Below are positions 4,152 to 42,757 of a DNA stretch of 64,000 nt, piece by piece. The notes under the pieces were generated by a model. The model worked only from the letters and a program-made list of their open reading frames with translations. It ran no database searches and had not been told where the DNA came from. Numbering within the stretch: the stretch's first letter is position 1; each line of letters begins with the position of its first letter. The translations under genes and the position numbers were made by a program. Origin of the DNA: an uncultured Alphaproteobacteria bacterium (GTDB lineage: Bacteria; Pseudomonadota; Alphaproteobacteria; RF32; CAG-239); contig CALXUP010000001.1 of the NCBI GenBank assembly GCA_944391715.1, forward strand, positions 100,676-164,675, given 5' to 3'.

Positions 4152-5042
4152 ATGACCGGTTTTGCAAGAAAAAACAGCAGTTATTCCGCCGGTAAAATTG
4201 AATATTCCTGGATTTGGGAAATAAAGTCCGTTAACGGAAAAGCTTTGGACGTGAAAGCCAAATTGCCGGCGAATCTTGAAGGTTTGAGCCTTTTACTGAA
4301 AAATGCCGCCGGTGAGGTATTGCACCGGGGCAGTATCAGTGCCTTTTTGGAATTGTCGGCTGCCGGGAGTGAGCAGAATATCCGGATTAATAAAGATCTG
4401 ATGCGTGAGTTGGCGGCAGCAGCGGCGGATTTGTATGAAGAGAGCGAAGGCAGGCTGGAAAAGCCTTCCGCTTCGGATATTCTCGGTATTAAAGGCGTGG
4501 TGGAAATTGAGGAATATCTGCCGGATGAAGAAGAGCAGGAGAAACTGCAACAGGCTTTGCTGCAGTCTTTTACCGAAACTTGCCGGGATCTTCAAACGAA
4601 TCGGGAAGCTGAAGGAAACAGGATTAAGAATGTATTGTCGGGGATTTTGAGACAAATCCGAGAAAATGTCTTAAAAGCAGAAGAAATTGCTTCCGGTTTG
4701 CCGGATGTTTTGAAACAAAAATTAAAAGAGCAGATTTCTTTATTGCTGGAACCTTTGGAAGGAATCAGCGAAGACCGTTTGGCGCAGGAAGTTGTTTTGC
4801 TGGTGAACCGCAGTGACGTGAGAGAAGAACTTGACCGTCTGAAAGCTCATATCCGGGCGGCGGAAGAAATGTTGGAGCAAGGCGGCGTTGTCGGTCGGCG
4901 GTTGGATTTTTTATGCCAGGAACTTAACCGGGAAGCCAATACGCTGTGTTCAAAATCAGCGGATACCGGGCTGACGAATCTGGGAATGGATTTGAAGGTT
5001 CTGATTGAACAATTCAGGGAACAAGTGCAAAATATCGAATGA
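4152..5042 (+). CDS. yicC: YicC-family stress-induced protein. The ORF opens at 4083 but the family-typical start is MTGFARK at 4152.
   Basis: The N-terminus MTGFARK... is typical of YicC_N, the C-terminal half is coiled-coil, and it sits immediately upstream of gmk (classic yicC-gmk pair). Confidence 0.8.
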   Translation: MTGFARKNSSYSAGKIEYSWIWEIKSVNGKALDVKAKLPANLEGLSLLLKNAAGEVLHRGSISAFLELSAAGSEQNIRINKDLMRELAAAAADLYEESEGRLEKPSASDILGIKGVVEIEEYLPDEEEQEKLQQALLQSFTETCRDLQTNREAEGNRIKNVLSGILRQIRENVLKAEEIASGLPDVLKQKLKEQISLLLEPLEGISEDRLAQEVVLLVNRSDVREELDRLKAHIRAAEEMLEQGGVVGRRLDFLCQELNREANTLCSKSADTGLTNLGMDLKVLIEQFREQVQNIE

Positions 5043-5049
5043 GGTTAAT

Positions 5050-5715
5050 ATGTCTGAAGTTATAGAAAGATTGAAACAAGTCCGTAAGGGGGCAATGTTT
5101 ATTATTGAAGGGCCTTCGGGAATCGGCAAAGGAACGGTTGTCAAAGAGCTGTTAAAGCGTGACAGCAACATCAAGTTTTCCGTTTCGGTAACAACCCGGG
5201 AAAAACGGGTCGGAGAGCAAGACGGCGTGGATTATTATTTTATCAATGACCAGCAGTATGACGAATTTTTGGTGCAAGATGCTTTTTATGAATATGTCAA
5301 TTCGGAATACGGTCCGCGTTACGGGACGCTGCGTTCCGAAGTTGACAGTTTTATCAATGTCGGACAGGACGTGTTGTTTGACATGGACTGGCTCGGTGCC
5401 CGCCAGATGCGCGAAAAAGCCAAAGACGACGTGGTAACGATTTATCTTCTCCCTCCGTCGATTAAAGTTTTGCGTGAACGGCTGGAAAAGCGCGGGACAG
5501 ATTCAAAAGAGACAATAGAAAAGAGAATGAGCGTTCTTTTGGACAAGATGAGCCATTGGAATGAGTTTGATTATGTGATTGTAAACGAGAATCTGGAAGA
5601 TACGGTGTTTAAAATCCAAAAGATTATTTCCGGAGAAAGAATGAAGAGAGTCCGCCAGATAGGGCTGCCCGGTTTTGTTAAAGAACTGGTGGAAGAGGCC
5701 AAAGGCGGAAAATAG
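5050..5715 (+). CDS. gmk: Guanylate kinase
   Basis: P-loop EGPSGIGKGT, the TTREKRVGEQDGVDYYFI GMP-binding motif, an RBS-like GAGG 9 nt upstream of the ATG at 5050, and synteny with yicC. Confidence 0.9.
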   Translation: MSEVIERLKQVRKGAMFIIEGPSGIGKGTVVKELLKRDSNIKFSVSVTTREKRVGEQDGVDYYFINDQQYDEFLVQDAFYEYVNSEYGPRYGTLRSEVDSFINVGQDVLFDMDWLGARQMREKAKDDVVTIYLLPPSIKVLRERLEKRGTDSKETIEKRMSVLLDKMSHWNEFDYVIVNENLEDTVFKIQKIISGERMKRVRQIGLPGFVKELVEEAKGGK

Positions 5716-5718
5716 CGT

Positions 5719-6303
5719 TTATTGTCCGGTTTCTTCTTCCGGCGGAATGTATGCTTTAATCTGCTGCCGTTGTTCGGGTTTCATAACCTTATAAACAGCG
5801 GCGGCATTTTTTTCGGCTTCCGGAACTTTCAGAAAAATGGCTTGTTGATATAGATTAAATGCGTGAACCAAATCCTGAGGGATTCCGATGCCGCGGGCGT
5901 TCATCCAGGCATAAATCTCAACGGCGTGCGGGTCATTGTCGGCAACGCGCATCAGAATCTCGTCCAGCTCAACCGGTGTGACGCGGTTTTCTTTGACGGC
6001 GCGGATTGCATTGTCCCATTTACGCTGGCGGGCAATTCTGGCTTCTTCTTCAATTTTATATTTATCTATTAACGGGATTTGATAGGGTGAGATTGCCGGT
6101 TCTTCAGCTTTGATGGCAAGCGGCGTTTCGGTAATGCCGTCTTCAATTAAAACATCGGGAATTTTGCGGTTTTTTACATAAAGCGGCAGATAGCCTTCGT
6201 TATCGGATTTTACCAAGTCGCGGTAAATCTCGTCCAAACTGGTGCTGTGCGCCGGTTTGACGAACAAAAAGGCGAGAAGTGTAAGAAATGCCAGCTTTTT
6301 CAT
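5719..6303 (-). CDS. Secreted hypothetical protein with a Sel1/TPR-like repeat
   Basis: N-terminal signal peptide MKKLAFLTLLAFLFVKPAHS. The segment YAWMNARGIGIPQDLVHAFNLYQQAI resembles a Sel1 repeat. Confidence 0.55.
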   Translation of the reverse strand: MKKLAFLTLLAFLFVKPAHSTSLDEIYRDLVKSDNEGYLPLYVKNRKIPDVLIEDGITETPLAIKAEEPAISPYQIPLIDKYKIEEEARIARQRKWDNAIRAVKENRVTPVELDEILMRVADNDPHAVEIYAWMNARGIGIPQDLVHAFNLYQQAIFLKVPEAEKNAAAVYKVMKPEQRQQIKAYIPPEEETGQ

Positions 6304-11412: not shown

Positions 11413-12503
11413 TTTCTTTTATCCTTATTTATATTGTCTTTAATGTCTTCAAAATTGCTTTTGATTTCGTTTATGACATTTCGGTTGATTTCGCGAAAAC
11501 TTTGATTAGCGGTTTGCCAGTGTTTCAGTTTGCTTAAATACCAGGCCGTGATTACGGCGCTTAATACCGGGATGGAATAGATATTCGGAGAATAGGCTTC
11601 GAAATATCCGAGAACAATCATGACAATTTCCAGGCGCAGAATGTTGTTGGCGATGTTATCGGGAGAAAGCCCGGAAATATTGGCCTGGAAATAAGCAGTG
11701 TTTGCCGTGATATCGGAATATTTGTCTCTTAAAGCCAGAGCTTGCAGTAAGGCCCAGGAAACTTCGATGATGAAAAACATATTGAAAATTATCAGACAGG
11801 GCGCTGCGCCTTCCGAGGCAGAGCGGAATATTAATCCGCCAAGCAAAAATCCCAGAGCCGTGCAGCCGGCGTCGGAAAGCTGCAAGCGGGCGGGATACCA
11901 GTTGAACAAGAGAAAGGCTCCCGTAACGGCAGCCAGAATCAGCGCCAGAGCGCCGAGCAGATGCGGAAGTGCAGCGGCCAGGGATAAGGTAAATATACCG
12001 AGTGCAACAGCAACCGTATGAAGACCGGCAACACTTTCGACCCCGTTTAAAAAACGGTACAAAAAGCTAAAAGCGAACCATAACAATACAGAGAGGAGCA
12101 GGCTTAACGGCGCCGGAATTTGAGGAAGCAACGGTTGGCTCTCCGGCATAAGGAAGGTCAAAACTGCCGTTCCGGACAGCACGGTCAGGGCGGCATATTT
12201 GGCTGAAAAACGTGAAGAAACATAAAAAATCAGAGCGGTTGCCGCGAGCAGAATCGGAAGTTCAAGCACGGAATATCCGCTGATAAAGTCATTGTCTTGT
12301 CTGAAAACAAATGCTGCAATCAGACCGAAAACGGCGAAAAAAACAAAAATAACGGCAAAAGGCGGAATTTGCCGTTCAAGCCGGGAAATTCTCTGTTGGT
12401 TCAGGACATAAAAACCGGCAAAGCTTAAGAAAAAGCTTGCAACAGCACAAATTGTCAAGAATGTATTGTCAAAATTCATTGCCTGTTTTCTCCGGTTTTC
12501 CAA
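11409..12503 (-). CDS. GT4-family (MraY/WecA-like) polyprenyl-phosphate sugar-phosphate transferase homolog. It is divergent, with an eroded catalytic motif.
   Basis: Multi-TM protein. LFNWYPARLQLSDAGCTALGFLLGG matches the MraY/WecA block FNxNPAKxFMGDxGSxxxGF. The upstream DGxDGL block is replaced by VESVAGL. Confidence 0.6.
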   Translation of the reverse strand: MENRRKQAMNFDNTFLTICAVASFFLSFAGFYVLNQQRISRLERQIPPFAVIFVFFAVFGLIAAFVFRQDNDFISGYSVLELPILLAATALIFYVSSRFSAKYAALTVLSGTAVLTFLMPESQPLLPQIPAPLSLLLSVLLWFAFSFLYRFLNGVESVAGLHTVAVALGIFTLSLAAALPHLLGALALILAAVTGAFLLFNWYPARLQLSDAGCTALGFLLGGLIFRSASEGAAPCLIIFNMFFIIEVSWALLQALALRDKYSDITANTAYFQANISGLSPDNIANNILRLEIVMIVLGYFEAYSPNIYSIPVLSAVITAWYLSKLKHWQTANQSFREINRNVINEIKSNFEDIKDNINKDKRN

Positions 12504-19826: not shown

Positions 19827-20900
19827 TTAGTTTTCTTTTCGGCAAAAACGGTTAAAAAATAAAGCCAGCTGCCGGATGAAAAAGATTGCGGCGATTGATG
19901 AAAAATGGAAGAACATAGCGCAGGCTCCAAAAATGGCCAGAACAGGGATCCATTTTCCCGAAAGTTCAAAATCCGAATAAAATACCGGAATTCCATAGCA
20001 TAAAGTTATGAATACATAAAGCATCAGCAGAAAGTAGATTATTCTTATTATCGGGCGGAGAATAAATTTTTTGAATTTTCCGCAGGGCTTGTTTTTTATG
20101 AATTTGCGTATTTTTTGCCACTGATACGGGGCAAAAATGTTTCCGCCGTATATTAAAAACATAATGCAAATAATATTGAGGAACATAAAATTTAGAAAAG
20201 CCTGACTACTGAAGGAAGGTGAGGCAAAAAAGGCGTCATTTATGAAATTAACAACGGCATTTTTATGCTCTATTCCCGGATTGCTGAGGTAAAGCGCATT
20301 TTGGCAATAAAGGATTATGTAAGCGAAGAACCCCAGAAAAAGAAGAAAACGGTCAATGAATACCTGATCGACAAATTTTCTGATTTTTAGAAGATGCTTT
20401 TCTTCTTCCGTGGAAAGCCGTTCAATTTTTCCGATGTTGGCAATGATGAAGAATTTATTGAAAAAAGTTTGTTTTATTTTTCTTCTGAATGAGATTTTTG
20501 TGCCGGTGTTTTGCTCTTTTGCTTGTTTCAGGGCACGGTTTATTACTGAATAAGTTTTGAAAAATAAAGTTATCTGCGGCAGGCAGTAAGGGGTAATTGG
20601 AGATTTTTTCCAGGTGATAACGGCAAAGGCATATACGGAAAACAGCATAATCATCATTGCCGGTGCCGAAGGATGTTTTTGGTACAGGGCGGATCCGGCA
20701 AAAAATGTCAGATAGGCAAGCCAGGCAAGGCATATTAATTTGAAAAGGATTCCGTTGTTTTGTTTGTTTTCAATATGTCTCAGCAGTTTTTTCAGCGGAT
20801 TGCCGGCCGCCAGCCGATCGGAGATTCTTAGTCCCGGAATCTGTTTTTGGAATTGTTCAAAATTTTCGGGCAGAAAGTCTTCGGGTGTTATGTCGGTCAT
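19827..20900 (-). CDS. Hypothetical polytopic membrane protein (357 aa) with no recognisable family, in a low-GC islet
   Basis: At least 8 predicted hydrophobic helices and an ATGA overlap with the upstream ORF. AT-rich codon usage distinct from the flanking genes. Confidence 0.55.
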   Translation of the reverse strand: MTDITPEDFLPENFEQFQKQIPGLRISDRLAAGNPLKKLLRHIENKQNNGILFKLICLAWLAYLTFFAGSALYQKHPSAPAMMIMLFSVYAFAVITWKKSPITPYCLPQITLFFKTYSVINRALKQAKEQNTGTKISFRRKIKQTFFNKFFIIANIGKIERLSTEEEKHLLKIRKFVDQVFIDRFLLFLGFFAYIILYCQNALYLSNPGIEHKNAVVNFINDAFFASPSFSSQAFLNFMFLNIICIMFLIYGGNIFAPYQWQKIRKFIKNKPCGKFKKFILRPIIRIIYFLLMLYVFITLCYGIPVFYSDFELSGKWIPVLAIFGACAMFFHFSSIAAIFFIRQLALFFNRFCRKEN

Positions 20901-21862
20901 TGCGTTTTTCCTTTTCCGTTTGTTGTTCGGAGATCGACGGCAAAAATCCTGTTATAAAGTTTGACGTAGAGTTTTGACGGATTTTTTCTCCGGTCGGCGC
21001 TCAGATGAAGAATTTGTTCCGGGTGTTCCGGGGCGGAGGATATTGTAAATTTTTGCGGATAAGGCGGGCAGCCTTCGTAAAAGCCTTTTTGTTTTTTATA
21101 TTTTTCCGGAATGTCTGCCAGTTTTATAGTATCTGAGAACTTTGGATAGGTGTCAATAAAACGGATGTAATTGGTTCCGCAATAGGTAAAGCGGTCTTTT
21201 TGCGGGCAGAAGTTCATTATGGAAACCGTGAAGAACCCTTTTTTATCTTTTAACGGAACGACCTCGTAACCGGCAGCATAAAGCCTGTAGTCTTTCTGGT
21301 CTTTGGTAATGAGCAGGTCAGAAGAGAACATCGGTCTGAAGAAAGGATATTTCCAGTAAGAAACGGCAATCGGAGATAAAATATTTTCGATTTTCGGCTG
21401 GCATTTATTTTTTGAATCAGGAAAGGTGATTTTTTGCAGTGAAAAAAACGGAAATTCCGTTTGGGGAAGATGCAGTTTTAATTTTTCGTACTGATCCGTG
21501 CGGGTAAGTGTGCCGGCAAAACCGCTGTTGATGATGCCGAAATTGTTTTCTTTTTTCAAATTTGTAAAGTCGGAGATTTCCGTATATGTGTTGGTTAATG
21601 TTATGGGCGATATGGACGTTGTTTCTTTTGTTGACGGCCGTTGTTGAAGTAATTCCGAGCTTTTTCGGGCATAATGGGAATCTTTATATTGATTGTCGAT
21701 GCAGGCGGTCAATTTATCTAAGGAAAGAGTGCTGCTGCACCAGAAAAGCGGTTGGGCTTCGAAAAAAAATTTATAATATTTGTTGTACAATTTGACATTT
21801 ATGACAATAAGCACGAGGACAAATATGAGAATAAGGATGCGGCGGAAATTGCTCAGAGGCAT
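20897..21862 (-). CDS. Hypothetical protein (321 aa), N-terminal membrane anchor plus an extracytoplasmic domain, unknown family
   Basis: TM helix ILILIFVLVLIVINV followed by a soluble Cys-containing domain. Translationally coupled to 19827..20900. Confidence 0.55.
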   Translation of the reverse strand: MPLSNFRRILILIFVLVLIVINVKLYNKYYKFFFEAQPLFWCSSTLSLDKLTACIDNQYKDSHYARKSSELLQQRPSTKETTSISPITLTNTYTEISDFTNLKKENNFGIINSGFAGTLTRTDQYEKLKLHLPQTEFPFFSLQKITFPDSKNKCQPKIENILSPIAVSYWKYPFFRPMFSSDLLITKDQKDYRLYAAGYEVVPLKDKKGFFTVSIMNFCPQKDRFTYCGTNYIRFIDTYPKFSDTIKLADIPEKYKKQKGFYEGCPPYPQKFTISSAPEHPEQILHLSADRRKNPSKLYVKLYNRIFAVDLRTTNGKGKTQ

Positions 21863-21964
21863 ACATTTCTCCTTTTTATAAAGGCGTTATATTGTTTGTA
21901 GTATAAAAAGGAGCTTATTTAAAAACAGTTAAAGGTTGTAAAAGGATAAGATTTTGATTGTAAT

Positions 21965-21999
21965 AAAAAAGCCCGCCGGGAAAATTCTCGGCGGTTTGT
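21965..21999 (-). terminator. Rho-independent terminator downstream of the DUF378 gene (hairpin ccgccg/cggcgg, then a T-run on the minus strand)
   Basis: 6-bp GC stem, 10-nt loop, U-tract on the minus-strand transcript. Confidence 0.55.
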
Positions 22000-22002
22000 T
22001 TT

Positions 22003-22209
22003 TTATTCTCCTATTTTTTCCCGACAATAAGGTAAATCCAGAATTGCAATAACAGCCGAAATTCCGACCAGCATATAAATAATCTGGGTCAGAATACCGG
22101 CCTCTCCAAAGATGAAAGAAACAAGATTAAATCCAAAGAACCCGATCAGTCCCCAGTTGATCCCTCCGATGATGGTTAAAATTAGAGCGATTTGCCGTAC
22201 AATGTTCAT
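22003..22209 (-). CDS. DUF378-family small membrane protein (68 aa from the internal start MNIVRQ at 22209; the ORF as listed opens at 22314)
   Basis: The GGINWGLIGFFGFNLV motif is typical of DUF378. An RBS GGAGAA precedes the internal ATG. Confidence 0.65.
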   Translation of the reverse strand: MNIVRQIALILTIIGGINWGLIGFFGFNLVSFIFGEAGILTQIIYMLVGISAVIAILDLPYCREKIGE

Positions 22210-22291
22210 TTTGCTTCTCCTGTAAATAAAAGTTGGCATTTTCTGCCAGTATGATATATATGCCATAAATGTTTTTTCAACGGAGAGAACC

Positions 22292-22990
22292 ATGTACAGC
22301 GAAAAATTTGCCAAAGCGGTTGAGATGCTGCAAAAAGATTTTGCTTTGGAAAGATCTATTGATGAAAAAATTTGTGCCGATCGGGACGGAAGGCCAATTC
22401 CCTGGTATACATTTCCGGCGATTGAGTATTTATCGCAATTTGATTATCGAAACAGAAAAATTTTTGAATACGGCTGCGGTTCTTCTTCGCATTTTTGGGC
22501 GGAGAGAGCCGAAAAGGTCATTAGTATTGAAGATAATCCGAAGTGGTTTGAGAAATGGCAGGCAGAAATGACGGAATCTAATCTGGAGGTTCGCTGGCGG
22601 GATGAAGGCGAGATTTATGAAAATGCCATTTTTGAACAGGAAGATTTGTTTGATGTTATTGTGGTTGACGGTAAAAGACGGGCGGAATGTTGTGCGGCGG
22701 CGGTGCAAAGACTGACTAAGGGCGGAATGATTATTCTTGATGACAGCGACAGGGTTAATACCAGCCAGGAATATCGAAAAGCGATTGCCATTCTTCGGGA
22801 AAGCGGATTGATTCAGGTGGATTTTTATGGTTTTTGCCCAATGAATTGTTATACCAAAACAACCAGTCTGTTTTTGAGCCGGGATTTTGATTTTGAATCA
22901 AAATATGAGGTTCAGCCGATAAACGGATTGGGAAATTTATGGTCGATGAGCCGACGAGAAAGAAAGGATTTTTATAAGAAAATGGCATAA
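22292..22990 (+). CDS. Putative class I SAM-dependent methyltransferase
   Basis: Motif I-like IFEYGCGSSSHFWA and an acidic motif II/post-I (VISIEDN), followed by VIVVDG...GGMIILDD, typical of the Rossmann MTase fold. A terminator follows. Confidence 0.55.
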   Translation: MYSEKFAKAVEMLQKDFALERSIDEKICADRDGRPIPWYTFPAIEYLSQFDYRNRKIFEYGCGSSSHFWAERAEKVISIEDNPKWFEKWQAEMTESNLEVRWRDEGEIYENAIFEQEDLFDVIVVDGKRRAECCAAAVQRLTKGGMIILDDSDRVNTSQEYRKAIAILRESGLIQVDFYGFCPMNCYTKTTSLFLSRDFDFESKYEVQPINGLGNLWSMSRRERKDFYKKMA

Positions 22991-28567: not shown

Positions 28568-29278
28568 TTATTCGTATATATACAATTCTTTGCCGTGTTC
28601 TTTCAGCCAGGCGCGGCCTTTCTCGCAACGAGGATTCAAAAAAGCGACGCAGTTCCAGAATTCTTCGGAATGATTCGGGTGGCGCAAATGGGCGACTTCG
28701 TGTGCAATCAGATATCTGATGACATAATCGGGAGCCAGAGAAATCCGCCAGTTGTAGTTGATGTTATTACGGTTTGAGCAGCTGCCCCAGCGGCTTTTGG
28801 TGTCTTTGATGCTCACGTCGTTGACCCGGCAGCCGATTTTTGCCGCCAGGCGCTGGGAGGCCTGATAGAATTTTTTTTGAGCCTGTTCTTTGATAAAATC
28901 GCGCAAGCGGCGGTGCAAAAATTCCCTTCCGCCGGAAACACAGACGGAATCGCCGTCAAAGAAAACGCCGGCGCGGGCTTTGGGCATGTGTCTGATTGTG
29001 TAGGTTTTGCCGAAAAGAGAGATTTGCTCGCCGTTTTGAAATTTTCTTATCTGCGGAAGCTTTTCTAAGCAGGAATCTATCCATCCCTGATTGCTGCGGA
29101 CAAATTCCAATGCGCGTTTGCTTGAACAATAGCGCGGAATGGTTAAAACAGGAATCCGTTCCTTGTTGTCTATTTTTAATATTAATTTGCTGGCGCGGGG
29201 CGACTTGACGACTTTGATGTCGTAGCCCAGAGCTTCGGCATAATTAAAGGTCCGGCCAGTCAATAATGTAATTTTCAT
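28568..29278 (-). CDS. YgjP-like metal-dependent hydrolase (DUF45 / M48 superfamily)
   Basis: WGSCS...HEVAHLRHPNHS..FW signature (HExxH zinc motif). Confidence 0.8.
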   Translation of the reverse strand: MKITLLTGRTFNYAEALGYDIKVVKSPRASKLILKIDNKERIPVLTIPRYCSSKRALEFVRSNQGWIDSCLEKLPQIRKFQNGEQISLFGKTYTIRHMPKARAGVFFDGDSVCVSGGREFLHRRLRDFIKEQAQKKFYQASQRLAAKIGCRVNDVSIKDTKSRWGSCSNRNNINYNWRISLAPDYVIRYLIAHEVAHLRHPNHSEEFWNCVAFLNPRCEKGRAWLKEHGKELYIYE

Positions 29279-29783
29279 AATCTTCTATTCCTGTTTCGGA
29301 GACGGTTTCTTTATCTTTTAACGACATTTTGGCCTGATGGACGCTGTCGGCGCGGCCGGTTTTCAGCGGATGCCAGTCCGGCAAATCGAATCCGTTGTCC
29401 AACAGCCAGTAAGCGCAGGTTTTGGGCAGCCAGCGGGGTTTTTCTCGAATGGCAGCGAGGTCAATGTCGCGGCAGTCGGGGACTTTTTCAAAGCGGTGAT
29501 AATAAATCCGGCACAAACAGCTTTGACAGTCCAAAAAGCGGCAGCGGGTGTTGGTAAACTTTATTTTTCCTTTTATTTCCAATTTGTTCAGACAGCATTT
29601 TCCGCAGCCGTCGCACAAAAGTTCCCATTCTTCTTTGCTCATTTCCGATAGTTTTTTCTTTTTCCAGAACTCAGGCTCGAATCGGGAAAGGTCTTCGTAT
29701 CGGGATTGAGGATCATAGCTGTTTTCTAAATTGTAATCTTTATTGCTCATTTCCGTCCTCGATAATATGGTCTTCAAGCTCAT
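29244..29783 (-). CDS. YcgN/UPF0260-family Cys-cluster protein, paralog 1 (possibly starting at the internal M at 29750)
   Basis: WELLCDGCGKCCLNKLE...CRFLD...C motif set diagnostic of UPF0260. Confidence 0.75.
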   Translation of the reverse strand: MSLKTILSRTEMSNKDYNLENSYDPQSRYEDLSRFEPEFWKKKKLSEMSKEEWELLCDGCGKCCLNKLEIKGKIKFTNTRCRFLDCQSCLCRIYYHRFEKVPDCRDIDLAAIREKPRWLPKTCAYWLLDNGFDLPDWHPLKTGRADSVHQAKMSLKDKETVSETGIEDYENYIIDWPDL

Positions 29784-30177
29784 CTTCTTTGACTTCGGTT
29801 TCCGGAATGCAGTGGTTTTTGATTGTATATTCGTCGGGAAGCCGTCCGTTGTTCAATAACGGATGCCAGGCCGGCAGTCCTTTGCCTTCTGCCAGGCAGC
29901 GATAGGCGCAGGTTTGCGGCATCCAGCTGATTTTATCGACATTTTCTTTGGTCAGTTTCAGGCAGGTCGGAACCAGTGTACAGCGCTCCTGATAGCGGGT
30001 GCAGCGACAGTTGCTCCGGTCAAAGTAGCGGCAGACGACATCCGTATAAAAGATTTCTCCGCTGTCTTCATCTTCCAGTTTGAGCAGGCAGCATTTTCCG
30101 CAGTTCATGCAAACGGCTTCCCACTCTTCTTCCGTAAAATCGGCGAGTTTTTTATGTTCCCAAAAGCGTTCCTGCAA
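29740..30177 (-). CDS. YcgN/UPF0260-family Cys-cluster protein, paralog 2
   Basis: WEAVCMNCGKCCLLKLE...CRYFD..C..C, the same family as the neighbouring gene (tandem paralogs). Confidence 0.75.
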   Translation of the reverse strand: MQERFWEHKKLADFTEEEWEAVCMNCGKCCLLKLEDEDSGEIFYTDVVCRYFDRSNCRCTRYQERCTLVPTCLKLTKENVDKISWMPQTCAYRCLAEGKGLPAWHPLLNNGRLPDEYTIKNHCIPETEVKEDELEDHIIEDGNEQ

Positions 30178-30242
30178 ATTTTTTCCTCTTTTTTAATGAA
30201 TTTCCGCTATAATACAATAAATGATTTCAAGGAGAAAGCAAA

Positions 30243-30626
30243 ATGTTCGGATGGCTGGCAAAAATGTTAATCTCTACCCCGATACAAGGCTCGGGATGCG
30301 CCTGTTGCGAAGGAAAAAAGAAAAGACTTGAAAAAATGCAGGAGGCGATAGCGGAAAGGCGGATTTTGGAAGAACCGGTTGCCGAATCGGGGAAATTGAG
30401 TTTTAGCTCCGGCAGTTTTTCGGCGCATTTTAATCCGGACGGCAGCGGCGAGTTTGAATATTATGCTAAGCCTCAGGCCGAAGATTCCTGTTGTTGCGGT
30501 GGCGGGGACGGATGTTCGTGCGGCGGAAACTGCGGAGATGACGATGTTTGCCATTGCGGGCGCGGCGATGACTGTTGCAAGAAAACCGGCAAAAAGCATG
30601 CCGTCTGCAAATGCGGAAAGCATTGA
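30243..30626 (+). CDS. Small protein with a Cys/Gly/Asp-rich metallothionein-like C-terminal tail
   Basis: C-terminal 45 aa: CCCGGGDGCSCGGNCGDDDVCHCGRGDDCCKKTGKKHAVCKCGKH (15 Cys). A GGAG RBS lies 8 nt upstream and a TATAAT -10 is nearby. Confidence 0.6.
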   Translation: MFGWLAKMLISTPIQGSGCACCEGKKKRLEKMQEAIAERRILEEPVAESGKLSFSSGSFSAHFNPDGSGEFEYYAKPQAEDSCCCGGGDGCSCGGNCGDDDVCHCGRGDDCCKKTGKKHAVCKCGKH

Positions 30627-30647
30627 TGACAAATTGAGGGCGAATTT

Positions 30648-32123
30648 TTAATCTCGTGCCTGTTCAGGTAGGTATTCGTCTTTGGCAAGGTTGCCGAATT
30701 GGGCAAATTCTCCGTTCCAGAAAAGCTGGACGGTTCCAGTTGAGCCGTGGCGCTGTTTGCCGATGATGACTTCACCGATATTTTTGGTACGGCGAACGCG
30801 TTCTTCCCATTCTTCCTGACGTTTTTGGAAATGTTCCGGCGTTTCTCCGGCTTTTTGTTTGGGTTCTTCGTTTTGAATGTAATAATTTTCGCGGTAGACA
30901 AACATAACGATATCGGCGTCTTGCTCAATAGAACCGGATTCACGCAGGTCGGACATGACGGGGCGTTTGTCGTCACGCTGCTCGACTCCGCGGTTTAACT
31001 GCGAAAGAGCGATAACCGGCACATTTAATTCTTTGGCGAGAATTTTTAAACCGCGGGAGATTTCGGAAAGTTCCTGAACGCGGTTGCCTTCGTTCTTTTT
31101 GCTGCCGGAACCGGTAATCAGCTGGATGTAGTCTATGACGATTGCTCCGAGCCCTTTGTTGCGGCGCAGGCGACGGGCACGTGTCCGGATGGTGTTGATG
31201 TTTAAACCCGGGGTGTCGTCAATATAAAGCGGAATTTGTTCCAGTTCCTGTACGGCGGCGGCAATTCGCATAAATTCGGCCTTGTCGAGTTCACCGTTGC
31301 GCATTTTTTTGCCGTTGGTCTGGGTAACGGTGGAAAGAATACGGCTGGCCAGCTGGTCAGCGGACATTTCCAGCGAAAAGAAAGCGACTCCGCGCATTTT
31401 GGGATCCAGGTTTTTATTATTGGCCATATATTCGGCAACATTATAAGCGATATTGGTAGCCAGAGCGGTTTTGCCCATGGCCGGACGGCCGGCGATGATT
31501 ATCAGGTCTGATTTGTTCAAGCCGCCGATCATATAGTCCAAAGCATCCAAAGAAGTCGGGAGTCCGGAGATTTTTCCGTCTTTTTCATAGGCTTCGGCAA
31601 TCAGGTGCAGAGAGTTGTTCAAAGCTTCGGAAAAGTCGATAAAACCACCGCGGGTATCGCCCTGATTGGAAAGCTCAAACAGTTTTTTCTCCGCGTTTTC
31701 TATTTGCTCAAATGCGTTGGTGTCCAGGTCTTCTTTGGTCGCTTCGTTTACGATTTCAAAACCGGTATTGATGAGTTCCCGGCGTAGGTATTTGTCGTAA
31801 ATAAACTGGGCATAATATTCGGCATTGGTCAGCGGAGAGGAACTGTCGGCCAACTGTATCAGATATTTGTAGCCGCCGACTTCGTCCAGTAATCCTTCCT
31901 GTTCGAAGTAATTTTTTAATGTGATGACGTCGGCGATGTGGCCTTTGCTGATGAGCTTGGAAATAATGTCATAAATTTTGGCATGGACAGGGTCGGCAAA
32001 ATGTTCTGGCCTTAAAAATTCGGAAACTTTTTCAAAGGCTTTGTTATTGGCGAGCAGGGCACCGAGCAGAGCTTGTTCGGCTTCAATATTCTGCGGCAGT
32101 TTTGCGGTATCAATGTTTTCCAT
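30648..32123 (-). CDS. dnaB: Replicative DNA helicase DnaB
   Basis: Walker A GRPAMGKTA, the DnaB N-terminal domain and the RecA-like C-terminal motifs. Confidence 0.95.
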   Translation of the reverse strand: MENIDTAKLPQNIEAEQALLGALLANNKAFEKVSEFLRPEHFADPVHAKIYDIISKLISKGHIADVITLKNYFEQEGLLDEVGGYKYLIQLADSSSPLTNAEYYAQFIYDKYLRRELINTGFEIVNEATKEDLDTNAFEQIENAEKKLFELSNQGDTRGGFIDFSEALNNSLHLIAEAYEKDGKISGLPTSLDALDYMIGGLNKSDLIIIAGRPAMGKTALATNIAYNVAEYMANNKNLDPKMRGVAFFSLEMSADQLASRILSTVTQTNGKKMRNGELDKAEFMRIAAAVQELEQIPLYIDDTPGLNINTIRTRARRLRRNKGLGAIVIDYIQLITGSGSKKNEGNRVQELSEISRGLKILAKELNVPVIALSQLNRGVEQRDDKRPVMSDLRESGSIEQDADIVMFVYRENYYIQNEEPKQKAGETPEHFQKRQEEWEERVRRTKNIGEVIIGKQRHGSTGTVQLFWNGEFAQFGNLAKDEYLPEQARD

Positions 32124-32727: not shown

Positions 32728-32804
32728 GTACCCGTAGCTCAGTTGGATAGAGTATCGGCCTCCGACGCCGAGAGTCGTGGGTTCGAATCCCTCCGGGTAC
32801 GCCA
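32728..32804 (+). tRNA. tRNA-Arg, anticodon CCG
   Basis: Cloverleaf read by hand: a 7-bp acceptor stem GTACCCG/CGGGTAC, the D-arm GCTCAGTTGGATAGAGT and the anticodon loop CU-CCG-AC with U33 and A37. The T-loop is TTCGAAT, with discriminator G and an encoded CCA. It closely parallels E. coli tRNA-Arg(CCG). One U-U mismatch sits in the T-stem. Confidence 0.85.
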
Positions 32805-32899: not shown

Positions 32900-33406
32900 T
32901 TAAACCGGAAAATTGTTCAGATAAAAACTGGCAAGGAGCAGGAGGATGAGCGGTAAAACAACTTTTTCAAACGGAAAATGAGCATGTCCGCCGTTTCCGG
33001 CCTTCATCCACTGATAAAATTTTTGCGAATAAATATAAATGAGCATCCCGAGCAGAGCGCTGAACAAAATCGGATCAAGATAAAAAACATACCAGATAAT
33101 ATGCGGCTGATAATTGACCTCGCTAATATAGATAAAGCCAATCATCCCCACGGAAATCAGCATTAAAAGAAAATCACGCCCCCAAAAATGCCAGTTTTTA
33201 CTGTCGAAAAATTTGATGCACCAATAGCCGAGAAGTGTCAGCAGAGCTCCTGCCCACAAGCCGACGACAGAGTCTTCTATACCAAGTTTCCGGGCAATGC
33301 CGATTGATGCGCCAATGGCAACGGTACAGACGGCGCAGGCCGGATTAGCAAAGGCCTGTACCGGATACAAGATAAAAGCCAATAAGGATAATGTAAGATT
33401 TTTCAT
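32900..33406 (-). CDS. Hypothetical membrane protein (168 aa) with a signal peptide and a CxxC pair near the N-terminus
   Basis: A signal-like N-terminus (MKNLTLSLLAFILYPVQAFA) and four hydrophobic segments. No family recognised. Confidence 0.5.
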   Translation of the reverse strand: MKNLTLSLLAFILYPVQAFANPACAVCTVAIGASIGIARKLGIEDSVVGLWAGALLTLLGYWCIKFFDSKNWHFWGRDFLLMLISVGMIGFIYISEVNYQPHIIWYVFYLDPILFSALLGMLIYIYSQKFYQWMKAGNGGHAHFPFEKVVLPLILLLLASFYLNNFPV

Positions 33407-33566: not shown

Positions 33567-34277
33567 ATGGAAATTTATAAGGAAAATTTACCGCCTTGTT
33601 GGTGGGACGGGCGTTTTGGGAAATTTAACATAAAATGTTCTCTGTCGTATAGGATTTTGGCATTGGAAAAGGGTGCGGAAACTATGTGGCAGGAACGGCA
33701 ATGGTTTATTTTTACGGATAAGCTGACGCGAGTTTCTCTGCGTTCTTTTGTCATGATTGAAAAAGAAACTTTTACCGGGCATCCTTTTTTCAAACTGGTT
33801 ATTGAAAATGAGCCGGTTTCTGAAAGCGATTTTCCGGAAGATTCTTTGGTGTATGAAAGTTTTTATCAAGATCCGGTCGGATACGGTGCAACAGTCGGCA
33901 AGAACTTCTACAGCAGCTTTAGCGCCTTAATGCTTCCGCCCTTTCAAAATCAAACGGGATATTGTATTGGCGGTATATATTTTCGAACGGAACTTGATGA
34001 AGATTTTCAAAAAAAGAAAACAGATCGTTATCTGGTTACTCCGAAAGAATTTTGCGCAAAGGTTTCATGGAAACATCTGGTGAAATATGCCAAGCCGTAC
34101 AATGCTTGTTTTGCTGCAGCGCGGGTAAAGAAATATCCGGACAAGATTTTTGCCGGACGGAGAGTTGTTCCGTTGTATATTGCGGATATTTGTGTCGGGG
34201 CAGAGCTCCTTGGCAGTAAGGGAAAGCCAAATTGCCGAGAGTATATGTCTTTTGAAGACTATTTGTCCTTATTGTAA
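33567..34277 (+). CDS. Hypothetical protein (236 aa), no recognisable domain, low GC
   Basis: Long ORF with coding-like composition, AT-rich relative to its neighbours, preceded by a very AT-rich promoter-like region. Confidence 0.5.
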   Translation: MEIYKENLPPCWWDGRFGKFNIKCSLSYRILALEKGAETMWQERQWFIFTDKLTRVSLRSFVMIEKETFTGHPFFKLVIENEPVSESDFPEDSLVYESFYQDPVGYGATVGKNFYSSFSALMLPPFQNQTGYCIGGIYFRTELDEDFQKKKTDRYLVTPKEFCAKVSWKHLVKYAKPYNACFAAARVKKYPDKIFAGRRVVPLYIADICVGAELLGSKGKPNCREYMSFEDYLSLL

Positions 34278-34321
34278 ATAAAAAAAAGCCGGGAGTTTTT
34301 TACTTTCCGGCCTTTTTATTT

Positions 34322-35179
34322 TTAAGACAATTTTCGGAGGAGGATTTTGAGCTTTCCTTTTAACGTCAACCTTGCTTTCTCCCATTGGACAAACGAATAA
34401 AGAACCGGATAGAGCTTGTCATTGATCTGAAAAACACAATGATAATTTTTCAGTTTATATTTTCCTTCGTCAACCAGGTCAGCACATCCCTTAGATACAG
34501 CATAAAGCTTGGCATTGCCGCTTTCATCCAAAAGAAGATAAGCATTGTCAAAAGTAATAATGTTTTTTCCTTCTGCAAAAAATTTATAAGCCCCGACTTT
34601 GGGAACAAAACCGTAAATTTTCATCTTGTTATTACAATCATCAACGGTTATCAACTCTGCTTTAGCAGGACTGTCGTAACGATAAATATCAAAATATCCA
34701 TCACTTCTTTCAATAACAATCGTTTCATCACAGATAAAAAACGGTTTGCTATACTGTTTTTGAATAAGTTTAAAAGGGTCTGCTGTTAAAAAAGACATAG
34801 TATAATTTTCTTCCGGATAACTTTTCAGATAGAAACATTGTTTCGTTTTAAAAGAACCATAATTTTCGGCTTTTCCCAGACATTCATCTTTGCCCGAAAC
34901 GTTTTTCCGTCTCAGATACCAAAGCCCGTCTTTTTGATATATCAGGCATTTGTCATATTTTTTGATATCAGAACAGTACTGCGGGGTTTGATGCAGTTTG
35001 TCATCCTCAATCCAGAAAAAGCGAAAATTTTCCTCTGAATCTCCCGCTTTTGCCTCCGTCAAAGATTGATCAACCGTAACAGTAATACCCTCGTCCAGCT
35101 TTTCAAACTTTTCCAATTTACTGTCCCATAGCCACAAAATATTCAGGCCGGCAGCTTTTGTAATAATAAAATGTTTCAT
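34322..35179 (-). CDS. Hypothetical protein (~286 aa from MKHFII at 35179), no recognisable domain, low GC
   Basis: Long ORF convergent with 33567..34277. Cys-containing soluble protein. Confidence 0.5.
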   Translation of the reverse strand: MKHFIITKAAGLNILWLWDSKLEKFEKLDEGITVTVDQSLTEAKAGDSEENFRFFWIEDDKLHQTPQYCSDIKKYDKCLIYQKDGLWYLRRKNVSGKDECLGKAENYGSFKTKQCFYLKSYPEENYTMSFLTADPFKLIQKQYSKPFFICDETIVIERSDGYFDIYRYDSPAKAELITVDDCNNKMKIYGFVPKVGAYKFFAEGKNIITFDNAYLLLDESGNAKLYAVSKGCADLVDEGKYKLKNYHCVFQINDKLYPVLYSFVQWEKARLTLKGKLKILLRKLS

Positions 35180-35310
35180 GACATAAAAATATTTAATTTG
35201 ACATAATTTTATTTTGCCCGATGAAAGTAGCATAACGTGCCGGAGAAGTCAACAGATGCTTGAAACCGGAGAAGCGGGGGCTATATCTTTGTTGTTTTAA
35301 GGAGGGGAAA

Positions 35311-39520: not shown

Positions 39521-39608
39521 TTTGTTCTCTGAAAAAATTTTTTATTAGTATAAGATAATTCTTGGCAGGAATTTATCAAGACAGTATAATTTCTGGGGAT
39601 AAAAAGGT

Positions 39609-40301
39609 ATGAAAGCATATAAAGAACAAATCAGGGAAAATTTGGAGCAGCTGGCAGAAGACGGATATCGGAAATTTTCGGCGGCGCTGCTTCCGGGGGT
39701 TGAAAACGTTTTGGGTGTCAGACTTCCCAAATTGCGGAAACTGGCGCAGAAAATTGCGGCTGACGATTGGCAAGGCTATTTGGCCGACCCGGACGGGACT
39801 TATATGGAAAGTCTTATGCTGCAAGGAATGGTTATGGGATATGCCAAAGCGGAATGGGAGATTGTCCGGCCGTATATTGAAAATTTTGTGCCCAAAATTA
39901 ACAGTTGGTCTGTGTGCGACTGTTGTTGCTCGAGTTTTAAAGTTTTGAAGAAAAATCAAGAGGCCGGATGGATATGGCTGCAAAAATATCTGCTTTCGGA
40001 CAAAGAATTTGAAATCCGTTTCGGCCTGGTGGCGTTGCTTTGGTTTTTTATTGAAGAAAAATATCTCGGGCAGATATTTGAGATATTGGATAAAGCTGAG
40101 CCGGCAGGATATTATGTGAAAATGGCAAAGGCCTGGCTGGCGGCGGAATGTTTTATCAAATTTCCGGTACAAACGGCAGATTATTTGGAGAAATCAGGCC
40201 TGGATGACTGGAGTTTTAACAAAACTCTGCAAAAAATCTGCGAATCTTTCCGTGTTTTGCCGGAGGTTAAAGAACGAATCCGCAAAATGCGCCGAAAATA
40301 A
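39609..40301 (+). CDS. DNA alkylation repair enzyme (AlkD/AlkC-like HEAT-repeat glycosylase family)
   Basis: Size and helical-repeat pattern, with the conserved RLPKLRKLAQKI...DW motif region of pfam08713. Confidence 0.6.
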   Translation: MKAYKEQIRENLEQLAEDGYRKFSAALLPGVENVLGVRLPKLRKLAQKIAADDWQGYLADPDGTYMESLMLQGMVMGYAKAEWEIVRPYIENFVPKINSWSVCDCCCSSFKVLKKNQEAGWIWLQKYLLSDKEFEIRFGLVALLWFFIEEKYLGQIFEILDKAEPAGYYVKMAKAWLAAECFIKFPVQTADYLEKSGLDDWSFNKTLQKICESFRVLPEVKERIRKMRRK

Positions 40302-42211: not shown

Positions 42212-42228
42212 ATACCGTGCCGGGGTAT
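42212..42228. promoter_or_regulatory. CsoR-type operator-like inverted repeat 1 (ATACCGTGCCGGGGTAT), lying in the spacer of a sigma70-like promoter (TTGACT at 42204-42209, TATATT at 42226-42231)
   Basis: 5-bp arms ATACC/GGTAT around a G/C core. A -35/-10 pair with a 16-bp spacer is read directly. Confidence 0.55.
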
Positions 42229-42238
42229 ATTGTAATTG

Positions 42239-42253
42239 TACCCTATGGGGGTA
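42239..42253. promoter_or_regulatory. CsoR-type operator-like inverted repeat 2 (TACCCTATGGGGGTA), just downstream of the -10
   Basis: Closely resembles the G/C-rich pseudo-palindromes bound by CsoR-family repressors. Positioned at about +1. Confidence 0.6.
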
Positions 42254-42276: not shown

Positions 42277-42462
42277 ATGAGAAACTGCAATAATCCGAAA
42301 TGTAAAAATCCGAACTGTACCTGCGGCGATAACTGTACATGTGATGAAACGCATCAGTGCGGAGAAGGCTGCGGATGCAACGAGCATTGTACCTGTGGCG
42401 ATGACTGCCATTGCAATGAAGAGCATAAATGCAGCGAGAAATGCTCTTGTCATAAGGGGTAA
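42277..42462 (+). CDS. Metallothionein-like Cys-rich small protein (61 aa; true start MRNCNNPK at 42277)
   Basis: 17 Cys in 61 aa in repeated CxCG[DN]xC units, AAGGAG RBS 8 nt upstream. Directly followed by a csoR-family gene. Confidence 0.75.
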   Translation: MRNCNNPKCKNPNCTCGDNCTCDETHQCGEGCGCNEHCTCGDDCHCNEEHKCSEKCSCHKG

Positions 42463-42466
42463 AAAG

Positions 42467-42757
42467 ATGACGGAAGGTCAAAGTTTTTCGGAACATCCGA
42501 ATCACGAATCCGAATTGCCGCGGCTGAACAGAATCCTCGGTCAGTTGGAAGGCGTAAAAAAAATGATTGCCGAACACCGGTATTGTCCGGAGATTTTAAT
42601 TCAGCTAAAGGCAATCCGGTCGGCAATCCGCGCCGTGGAAAGCAATATTCTGAACCGGCATTTGCAGGCTTGTGTGACACAGTCGTTTGACAGCGAAGAG
42701 GCCAAGGCCGAAAAAATTGCGGAATTGAAAATGCTTTTTGACCGTTTTGAAGAATAA
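42467..42757 (+). CDS. csoR: CsoR/RcnR/FrmR-family metal-sensing transcriptional repressor (96 aa; true start MTEGQ at 42467)
   Basis: LNRILGQLEGVKKMIAEHRYCPEILIQLKAIRSAIRAVESNILNRHLQAC carries the family W-X-Y-Z ligand positions (Cys in the RYC motif, then His and Cys downstream). Confidence 0.8.
   Translation: MTEGQSFSEHPNHESELPRLNRILGQLEGVKKMIAEHRYCPEILIQLKAIRSAIRAVESNILNRHLQACVTQSFDSEEAKAEKIAELKMLFDRFEE

Follow-up and report, generated by a model that had tools for sequence, protein, structure and literature searches.

The locus described here raises the question of what a small bacterial protein does when it joins a conserved N-terminal domain to a tail packed with cysteine and resembles nothing to which a function has been assigned. 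The protein is encoded by an open reading frame (ORF), hereafter the 30243 gene, in a 64,000-nucleotide stretch of DNA from an uncultured Alphaproteobacteria bacterium (GenBank assembly GCA_944391715.1, contig CALXUP010000001.1, positions 100,676 to 164,675 of the forward strand); this stretch, at its full length, is referred to as the window. A first-pass annotation had placed the ORF at 30243..30626 and quoted the sequence of its 127-residue product, tail included, all of which proved exact. The answer proposed here is that the 30243 protein would be a constitutively made cytoplasmic metal-thiolate protein, consisting of a folded handle and a metallothionein-like tail, and we consider the chances of this reading being right or wrong to be about even. 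The evidence that carries it comes from the composition and conservation of the tail, from the distribution of cysteine-rich stretches across a previously unnamed family, and from the sequence upstream of the gene.

Purifying selection on the cysteine-rich tail

The protein contains 15 cysteines, of which 12 are located in the C-terminal 45 residues (the tail, 4.5 kDa) and the others are C19, C21 and C22. The first-pass annotation gave the tail "15 Cys plus His", which as a count of cysteines fits only the whole protein; the tail holds 12 cysteines and three histidines. Cysteine makes up 26.7% of the tail, where it occurs as CCC, CSC, CHC, CC and CKC, and 11.8% of the whole protein, while all eight Phe, Trp and Tyr residues lie inside residues 1-82. 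Given the cysteine content of 1.55% in the long open frames of the window, the binomial probability of 12 cysteines in 45 residues is 3e-12. A six-frame scan of all 64 kb found only one segment denser than the tail, in the ORF at 42277 (14 per 45 residues); the next-best segments reached 8 per 45, and two of these are in YcgN proteins. The composition (27% cysteine, no aromatic residues, CxC and CC pairs, predicted disorder) thus bears out the earlier description of the tail as metallothionein-like.

An origin of the tail as a DNA repeat or slippage array was rejected on two observations: Tandem Repeats Finder detected nothing in it, and the internal DNA similarities are weak, spanning 9-23 nucleotides (nt), with the best at 74% identity over 23 nt. 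The C-x-C-G-G/D-N-C units described in the earlier annotation amount to CxC and CC pairs that recur loosely, and do not form a repeat array. That annotation had also named a low-complexity or frameshift artefact as the outcome that would undo it. Such an artefact is excluded by the ratio of non-synonymous to synonymous substitution rates (dN/dS; method of Nei and Gojobori), which within the window's clade is 0.04-0.15 for the tail, with dS at about 0.3-1.6, near 1 in the closest relatives, and ranging overall from 0.26 to saturation, and by the conservation of the cysteine columns, of which 8 of 12 are invariant and 10 of 12 are at least 92% conserved among the 12 clade members. In the same alignment, mean conservation in the tail is 0.90 for cysteine columns versus 0.73 for the others, columns 103-114 are 75-100% identical (10 of the 12 at 92% or more), and the core DDDVCHCG[RK]GDDCCKKTGKK is almost fixed. 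Purifying selection on the cysteines added in this clade implies that they are functional and not the result of drift. At the other end of the gene, the first 20 codons show abundant synonymous variation under a nearly constant peptide in 25 orthologues. The gene at 30243..30626 is therefore real and under purifying selection.

The N-terminal domain defines the family

Comparison of the sequences collected indicates that the N-terminus, rather than the tail, is what defines the family. A search of 5.8 billion proteins returned 18 homologues (34-91% identity), a scan of one genome per species found 23 loci, and a profile of the first 45 residues, run against the same 5.8-billion-protein set, added 61 further proteins, mostly of 60-80 residues (aa). 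HMMER, run exhaustively over 1.84 billion cluster representatives with the full-length alignment A3, matched only 52 clusters, and the last of these matches, P0117, was discarded as a spurious repeat protein. All matches in the three protein searches (18, 61 and 52) align from residue 1, and no domain fusions appeared in the exhaustive search. The window protein fits exactly the motif M-F-x-W-L-x(3)-L..P-x(3-5)-C-x-C-C-E-x-K-x(3)-L-x(2)-M, which begins at residue 1, and the N-terminal consensus reads MFGWLAKMLxxTPVQGSGCxCCEGKKxxLxKMQxAI. Invariant positions in 63 sequences are M1, W4, L5, C19, L29 and M32, and those conserved in at least 90% of them are F2, P13, S17, C21, C22 and E23; further downstream, Y73 is invariant in alignment A1. 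Within the window's clade, dN/dS is 0.06-0.08 for residues 1-38 and 0.15-0.39 for residues 39-81. The first-pass annotation had called the N-terminal part an unrelated domain, a view that does not survive this degree of constraint and the six invariant positions.

None of the homologues matched carries a functional name. The window protein itself matched nothing in Pfam, NCBIfam, PHROGs or PADLOC at E <= 1, and no PDB chain at E <= 10, either as a single sequence or as a profile. The family, with its N-terminal domain and its apparently modular, expanding thiolate region, is therefore one without a match in the libraries searched; cysteine-rich metal-binding proteins and tails are, as a kind, already known.

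Two AlphaFold2 runs, based on 19 and 63 aligned sequences, predicted the same topology: a helix at residues 3-11, a second helix at 20-37 that starts from the cysteine triad, a three-stranded beta meander at 52-73, and a disordered tail. The mean predicted local distance difference test score (pLDDT) was 56 and 63 and the predicted template modelling score (pTM) 0.25-0.30; locally, pLDDT was about 65-72 in the two helices and 78-83 in the meander. The helix made by residues 1-11 is hydrophobic (mean hydrophobicity 0.56, moment 0.34), and the spacing of L29, M32 and I36 on the second helix could let them pack on the first, giving a helical hairpin. In a Foldseek comparison with the PDB, the best E was 0.8 and no TM-score exceeded 0.3, values without meaning. 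The earlier expectation that the N-terminal 80 residues would be helical holds for the two helices but not for the meander. Within the beta module, the stretch EFEYYAK of the window protein aligns with the C-terminal TSYHYEL of the short members of the family.

The N-terminus also bears on the location of the protein. If MFGWLAKMLISTPIQGSG were a signal peptide ending in a lipobox, C19 would be lipidated and the tail would be periplasmic, as in a lipoprotein or secreted protein, and C19 is indeed invariant and preceded by the small residues G-S-G and a short hydrophobic stretch. However, there is no positively charged N-region, and the hydrophobic stretch, of about nine residues, has Lys or Asp at position 7. 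The residue at position -3 to C19 is Gly (window protein) or Gln where Leu, Val or Ile would be expected, so that the sequence departs from the lipobox [LVI][ASTVI][GAS]C, and at position -1 Gly, Ser, Thr, Arg, Asn and Pro all occur (QGTC, GSRC, QGNC, PPPCC). Moreover, M1, F2, W4, L5, L9 and P13 are the most conserved residues of the protein, which is the opposite of what signal peptides show. A lipidated or secreted product is accordingly unlikely in the extreme. The Lys or Asp in the hydrophobic stretch, together with the Thr, Arg or Asn before C19 in some members, argues against both a signal peptide and a lipobox, and the 30243 protein is most likely cytoplasmic.

Variation of the cysteine-rich region across the family

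The collected family set comprises 127 unique sequences of 39-141 aa (median 79), and the motif counts refer to the 115 members of at least 60 aa. The N-terminal CxCC is present in 104 of the 115, and the other 11 have CxxC or CxC. The number of cysteines beyond residue 26 ranges from 0 to 16 (median 4; all 127 sequences). A downstream cluster of at least four cysteines within 15 residues was found in 63 of the 115 members, the motif CxCG..CC in 31, including relatives outside the window's clade, and a YHYxL-type C-terminus in 25. The position of the cysteine-rich stretch can be sorted into three arrangements: (i) after the FSSGSYSA..Y beta module, in the window's clade, P0080 and P0082; (ii) before the beta module, in P0099 (as tandem ECRCGDxC[RH]C units), P0089, P0114 and P0115; (iii) on both sides of it, in P0008 and P0084. 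Pooled over the 115 members, these stretches contain 26% Cys, 20% Gly, 20% Asp plus Glu, 5% His and less than 1.5% aromatic residues. Their recurrence at differing positions argues that selection has repeatedly favoured thiolate capacity and not a fixed fold.

The 45-residue tail with 12 cysteines is confined to the window's own clade and, because CxCG..CC recurs outside that clade as well, looks like a clade-specific enlargement of this shorter motif. The first-pass annotation had proposed to examine, through homologues of the N-terminal domain, whether the tail is a recent acquisition; in this respect, some downstream cluster of cysteines, variable in size and position, is present in roughly half of the members (63 of 115), and only the 12-cysteine form is restricted to the window's clade.

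The same counts bear on an alternative in which the CxCC and a distal CxC..CC would together make up one site, in a thiol redox, Fe-S or structural zinc-finger regulator, and the additional cysteines of the window's clade would be secondary; Fe(Cys)4, [2Fe-2S] or [4Fe-4S], Zn(Cys)4 and a reversible disulfide switch are the candidates. A typical member, with a CxCC and about four downstream cysteines, suits one site better than a multi-metal cluster, and either CxC-x(1-5)-CxC or CxCG..CC patterns recur in 31-34 of the 115 members. The hosts are, moreover, probably anaerobic gut bacteria, in which Fe-S proteins are common. Nevertheless, the number and spacing of the downstream cysteines vary (0-16) and the cluster shifts relative to the beta module, both of which are unusual for a defined Fe-S or zinc-finger site, and all cysteines added in the window's clade are under purifying selection. 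No Fe-S or zinc-finger family model in Pfam or NCBIfam matches the protein. We regard a single site of this kind as rather improbable.

All 23 species-level matches belong to metagenome-assembled genomes (MAGs) of uncultured Alphaproteobacteria, and wherever a source could be identified for the 52 clusters it is likewise a gut MAG of this class. Where a source is recorded, it is the gut of human, mouse, deer or chicken, and the sole named taxon is Candidatus Scatocola; the lineage is probably the GTDB order RF32, and one family member, P0069, is indexed in 806 blocks of the assembly collection. The intracellular or metal-stressed niche suggested by the first-pass annotation finds no support in these 23 genome matches, whose named sources are all gut. 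A candidate for horizontal transfer, P0059, was found on a contig (L039; GCA_029218545.1, JAQXRN010000200.1) of a MAG labelled as Firmicutes and was rejected as a Firmicutes member, as the contig is probably chimeric inside dnaB, in the region of about 4565-5980. Residues 351-471 of the L039 DnaB, roughly its C-terminal 120, are about 80% identical to alphaproteobacterial DnaB, whereas residues 1-350 are only 22-52% identical; the guanine-plus-cytosine content of this contig falls from roughly 0.47 to 0.37, and rplI, gdpP and parB are located on its far side.

Expression signals and the second cysteine-rich gene

The promoter element and ribosome-binding site that the first-pass annotation had attributed to the gene were located at 30208-30213 (TATAAT) and 30229-30234, and a TATAAT-like -10 element followed at the same spacing by a Shine-Dalgarno sequence of the AAGGAG or AAGGA type recurs in most of 25 orthologous upstream regions. 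The TATAAT lies in the 65-bp intergenic region that the gene has in common with the divergent ycgN. A consensus promoter scan did not call a full sigma-70 promoter upstream of the gene, owing to the lack of a good -35 element, and the 5' leader is not conserved among the 25 orthologues beyond the -10 and Shine-Dalgarno elements. No inverted repeat was found in 30140-30300, and no Rfam family was significant in 29500-31200. The CsoR-type box TACC-N(4-10)-GGTA has five matches in the window and none within 1.8 kb of the gene, although this operator search leaves room for sites of regulators with non-palindromic or unlisted motifs. The absence of an operator-like repeat or CsoR box and the unconserved leader suggest that the 30243 gene is probably expressed constitutively.

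The second cysteine-rich ORF of the window, at 42277, is arranged differently. Two CsoR-type boxes lie upstream of it and a gene of the CsoR family, 12 kb from the 30243 gene, lies beside it; one relative (L007) keeps a 42277-type gene and its csoR-family partner as a pair at 11690..12167. By analogy with known systems, this unit appears to be a copper-responsive metallothionein operon that regulates itself. In mycobacteria, the RicR (CsoR-family) regulon includes a Cu(I) metallothionein, MymT (PMC3944814), which is similar to the 30243 protein in being a small, lineage-restricted bacterial cysteine-rich protein with CxC and CxH motifs. However, the layout of MymT and RicR described there (PMC3944814) fits the 42277 gene, with its two CsoR-type boxes and csoR-family gene, and not the 30243 gene. 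The first-pass annotation had likened the two cysteine-rich proteins to each other. The second protein is real and conserved in a relative, but homology between the two was rejected, as BLASTP gave 17 bits and the likeness is one of composition only. The lineage, as far as the comparison indicates, is keeping two unrelated cysteine-rich proteins, that of 42277 visibly metal-regulated and that of 30243 without a recognisable metal-regulator site.

Proposed function and comparison with known systems

The 30243 protein would be a small two-part protein, made in the cytoplasm from its own promoter. The first part (residues 1-76) would be a folded handle found nowhere else, in which a helical hairpin with the CxCC at the start of its second helix is followed by the beta meander. 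The second part (residues 83-127) would be an intrinsically disordered tail, whose 12 cysteines and three histidines, arranged in CxC, CC and CxH pairs, could wrap several soft metal ions into metal-thiolate clusters; 12 cysteines would suit roughly four divalent ions such as Zn(II), or about six Cu(I). Such a protein could serve as a standing metal buffer or reservoir, with the handle and its three cysteines mediating oligomerisation or docking to a partner, which would explain why the N-terminal domain is constrained far more tightly than a plain metallothionein needs. Capacity would be an evolvable trait, extending from 0 to 16 downstream cysteines, with the tail of the window protein enlarged from an ancestral four-cysteine CxCG..CC site. 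We infer metal binding and the buffer or donor role from the composition of the tail, its predicted disorder, the cysteine-specific conservation and the repeated, position-independent gains of cysteine-rich stretches; the identity of the metal, the stoichiometry and the cytoplasmic location are proposed at the same level.

Several points weigh against this reading. Metal binding is deduced from composition alone, no known metallothionein family matches at E <= 1 and no PDB chain at E <= 10, and the structure models are of low confidence overall, as the mean pLDDT (56 and 63) and pTM values given above indicate. Plain buffering leaves unexplained why conservation is highest in the N-terminal 37 residues, and some full-length members (P0025, P0033, P0041 and P0069) have just one or two downstream cysteines; taken together, the conserved domain and these members suggest that the core function of the family may reside in the N-terminal domain, with the tail as an accessory. 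Furthermore, bacterial metallothioneins are usually metal-regulated, and the 30243 gene lacks CsoR operators like those of the 42277 gene. The conservation of the handle suggests that it has a specific job, for example oligomerisation or the docking of a partner.

Metallothioneins in general are proteins of low molecular weight and high cysteine content, without aromatic residues, in which CxC, CC and CxxC motifs hold metal-thiolate clusters. At 26.7% cysteine in CxC and CC motifs, the tail is within the usual range of cysteine content (about 15-35%), and taken by itself it would also pass for a metallothionein in size and in lacking aromatic residues. The whole protein, in contrast, exceeds the usual limit of about 10 kDa and is not free of aromatic residues (13.5 kDa, eight aromatics), and control by a metal regulator, which is usual though not strictly required, was not recognised for its gene. 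In SmtA (about 55 aa), which is under the control of SmtB, the entire chain folds around a Zn4Cys9His2 cluster. SmtA and BmtA (PF02069) are, like the 30243 tail, small, rich in Cys and His, provided with CxC motifs and devoid of aromatic residues, and a cytoplasmic role in Zn, Cd or Cu buffering is presumed on both sides. Nevertheless, the 30243 protein does not match this family at E <= 1 or any PDB chain, its cysteine-rich part is a 45-residue tail on a conserved domain of 82 residues, and no regulator operator is seen.

Similar in architecture are SlyD, HypB, UreE, CooJ and Hpn, in which a conserved folded domain carries a disordered Cys- or His-containing tail that varies in length between species and binds several metal ions. 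The likeness is one of architecture only: the folded domain of the 30243 protein is unrelated to theirs by Pfam and NCBIfam, its tail is dominated by cysteine whereas theirs are mostly dominated by histidine, and no hyp, ure, coo or nik genes (maturation of hydrogenase, urease and CO-dehydrogenase) are near the 30243 gene. A reported chimera, 'TrxA' from Runella aurantiaca, likewise has a folded domain at the N-terminus and, after a linker, a metallothionein domain at the C-terminus, the latter modelled with low AlphaFold confidence (PMC13578184). Its metallothionein part is 98% identical to Synechococcus SmtA and its thioredoxin (Trx) part 96% identical to enterobacterial (Citrobacter) TrxA, with a linker of 56 aa between them (PMC13578184). 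With such identities it may derive from a Trx-tag expression construct, and as a precedent for natural fusions between a folded domain and a metallothionein it carries little weight. It is, in any case, a fusion of two known families, whereas both parts of the 30243 protein are without a known relative.

At present, the analysis provides a well-supported annotation of an orphan gene with a plausible function, and the mechanism is not yet a surprising one. If the metal-thiolate reading is true, the proteins would constitute a new sequence family of metal-thiolate proteins, from host bacteria that are common in human and animal guts and uncultured. To our knowledge, few families of bacterial metallothioneins have been described and none from gut Alphaproteobacteria. 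Its members, with 0 to 16 downstream cysteines, would form a natural series of thiolate capacities that repeatedly grew and moved on a fixed scaffold, and together with the CsoR-controlled 42277 gene the family would mean that the lineage keeps two differently regulated cysteine-rich proteins.

Genomic neighbourhood and a possible link to YcgN

The position of the gene between tandem YcgN paralogues and dnaB, as first annotated, was confirmed by the NCBIfam YcgN matches of both paralogues. Coordinates of these genes and of the other features are collected in Table 1.

Table 1. Positions of the 30243 gene, its signals and protein segments, the adjoining genes and the 42277 unit within the window
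Feature	Position	Strand	Basis
Coding sequence, 127-aa protein (13.5 kDa, 15 Cys, 4 His)	30243..30626, stop codon included	+	ATG..TGA ORF, homologues
TATAAT -10 element, gene's own promoter	30208..30213	+	read from sequence
Shine-Dalgarno AAGGAG, 8 nt before ATG	30229..30234	+	read from sequence
N-terminal domain, residues 1-37: helix MFGWLAKMLI, TPxQGSG loop, second helix CCEGKKKRLEKMQEAIA	30243..30353	+	alignments A1-A3
Cys triad C19-A-C21-C22 (CxCC), start of helix 2	30297..30308	+	C19 invariant; C21 and C22 at least 90% conserved
Variable acidic linker, residues 38-50	30354..30392	+	poor conservation, low pLDDT
Beta module KLSFSSGSFSAHFNPDGSGEFEYYAK, three strands, residues 51-76	30393..30470	+	best-predicted part of AlphaFold2 model
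Metallothionein-like tail, residues 83-127	30489..30623	+	12 Cys, 11 Gly, 6 Asp, 6 Lys, 3 His, 0 aromatic; predicted disordered
Best-conserved tail core CHCGRGDDCCKK, residues 103-114	30549..30584	+	clade alignment
ycgN, 145 aa, TTG start, divergent from the 30243 gene, first of the ycgN-ycgN'-ygjP operon	29740..30177	-	PF03692 E 1.7e-8; NCBIfam YcgN E 7e-53
ycgN', second YcgN paralogue; ends overlap ycgN and ygjP	29244..29783	-	NCBIfam YcgN E 6e-51
ygjP-like metallopeptidase gene, 236 aa, third in operon	28568..29278	-	PF01863 E 1e-50
dnaB, convergent with the 30243 gene, 21 nt between stop codons	30648..32123	-	Pfam DnaB/DnaB_C on orthologues
Second cysteine-rich ORF, 61 aa, 16 Cys, 5 His, 0 aromatic	42277..42462		
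CsoR/RicR-family repressor gene, 96 aa, 4 nt after the stop of the 42277 ORF	42467..42757		PF02583 E 2.9e-24
Two TACC-N7-GGTA CsoR-type boxes upstream of the 42277 gene	42213-42227 and 42239-42253		

On the minus strand, the genes form the backbone dnaB > ycgN > ycgN' > ygjP > Bax1-I, with the Bax1-I gene beyond ygjP. Since the gene ends overlap, ycgN, ycgN' and ygjP are probably translationally coupled. YcgN and YcgN' are 39% identical to each other; across the lineage, YcgN' (168 aa in its orthologues) is 74-81% identical versus 52-66% for YcgN. A second ycgN paralogue together with ygjP was found in only 2 of 80 environmental ycgN loci, both from the human gut, which indicates that the duplication and the linkage to ygjP are specific to this gut lineage.

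The cysteine-rich gene lies beside a ycgN in nearly all relatives, always on the strand opposite to the backbone where one of two intervals is occupied: (i) the dnaB-ycgN interval, in the window and most relatives; (ii) the ycgN-ycgN' interval, in L034 (6001-6264) and L039 (3848-4075), which represent a clade of short forms ending in YHYEL. In one further clade, trbC takes the place of dnaB and the cysteine-rich gene still adjoins ycgN. Wherever the arrangement is dnaB-ycgN or trbC-ycgN, the gene and ycgN are transcribed divergently, and their start codons are some 65-135 bp apart. Two loci of a related human-gut lineage (L070 and L071) have the same backbone, with the ycgN-ycgN' interval filled by two unrelated genes and no family member there, and the most divergent member of the family, P0116, follows a gene for an iron-containing alcohol dehydrogenase (Pfam Fe-ADH), with no ycgN nearby. 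DnaB is 80-96% identical across the lineage, indicating strong overall synteny, and at 80 metagenomic ycgN loci of other lineages neither a homologue of the family nor a credible small cysteine-rich analogue was found. Because of this synteny, the loci without the gene, the location of P0116 and the 80 negative loci, adjacency to ycgN is suggestive but weak as evidence of a functional link.

The neighbourhood nevertheless gives rise to the possibility, which overlaps with the metal-thiolate reading, that the 30243 protein is a dedicated partner of YcgN, YcgN' or both, on which the handle would dock while the triad and tail deliver or hold a metal or Fe-S cofactor. The gene stays by a ycgN paralogue through three arrangements (dnaB-ycgN, the trbC variant and ycgN-ycgN'), the 65-bp region over which it diverges from ycgN is a promoter region common to both, the tandem of ycgN, ycgN' and ygjP is itself lineage-specific, and the strong constraint on the N-terminal domain would fit a specific interaction. 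YcgN proteins (PF03692, CxxCxxCC) are likewise cysteine-rich and predicted to chelate metal or Fe-S, but the two are not homologous: the 30243 protein matches neither PF03692 nor the NCBIfam YcgN model and differs from them in cysteine pattern and size. Against a partnership, all of this concerns one strongly syntenic lineage in which adjacency may simply be inherited; L070 and L071 keep dnaB > ycgN > .. > ycgN' > ygjP without a family member at the locus, P0116 does without ycgN, and no small cysteine-rich ORF accompanies ycgN at the 80 loci of other lineages. The function of YcgN is itself uncharacterised, and a literature search on YcgN (UPF0260) brought up nothing relevant, the matches concerning an unrelated Bacillus gene of the same name. 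A dedicated partnership is thus possible but doubtful. The YcgN paralogues are the only candidate partners to which the data point, and they do so weakly.

The most far-reaching version combines both ideas into a new class of modular metal-handling proteins, in which a CxCC handle docks on the YcgN (UPF0260) proteins and an evolvable tail, as a reservoir of metal or Fe-S, loads these partners. We consider this improbable; if true, it would provide a new metallothionein-like family together with a first route to the function of the YcgN/PF03692 proteins, which are widespread and for whose role the tandem YcgN adjacency could offer a first lead.

The neighbouring genes also allow the protein to be considered as the precursor of a ribosomally synthesised and post-translationally modified peptide (RiPP), with the N-terminus as leader and a hypervariable cysteine-rich core that might be processed by the YcgN proteins and YgjP. 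A conserved leader joined to a variable cysteine-rich core is the classic pattern of such precursors and is superficially present here, and next to the gene lies an operon for two Cys-cluster proteins, both uncharacterised, and a metallopeptidase. However, no recognisable radical SAM/SPASM, YcaO, lanthipeptide synthetase or MNIO protein and no exporter is encoded within about 12 kb on each side, and in Proteobacteria YcgN and YgjP occur widely with no peptide of this sort (none at the 80 loci). The beta module that would separate leader from core is conserved and predicted to fold, and in many members the cysteine-rich stretch is internal and is followed by the conserved C-terminal TSYHYEL. 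A RiPP precursor is accordingly very unlikely. By Pfam annotation, the same 12 kb or so on either side contain no maturase, metal transporter or metalloenzyme maturation gene either, the genes there being housekeeping genes, the two ycgN paralogues, ygjP and the Bax1-I gene.

Other features of the window

In some relatives, an extra small ORF of 66-76 aa without an NCBIfam match is present on the dnaB strand between the cysteine-rich gene and dnaB (L009, 6283-6483; L036, 6213-6443); it is absent from the window. A terminator-like hairpin with a T-run, on the dnaB strand (-) at 30587-30603, falls within the KKTGKKHAV codons of the 30243 gene. Its use as a terminator of dnaB within the coding sequence was considered and dropped, because, apart from the window, only the two closest relatives have this hairpin and it is not conserved more widely; L004 has a clean intergenic hairpin in its place. 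Seven large ORFs of the window, of 356, 320, 232, 236, 302, 197 and 167 aa (located in 19827-22990, 33567-35233, 39576-40172 and 32900-33406), had no Pfam match at E <= 1e-5, or at 1e-3 for the ORF of 167 aa, in keeping with the picture of a poorly annotated lineage. Finally, a tRNA-Arg (CCG) gene is located at 32728-32804, downstream of rpmB (L28, 32285..32578), and accounts for the spurious ORFs listed around these positions.

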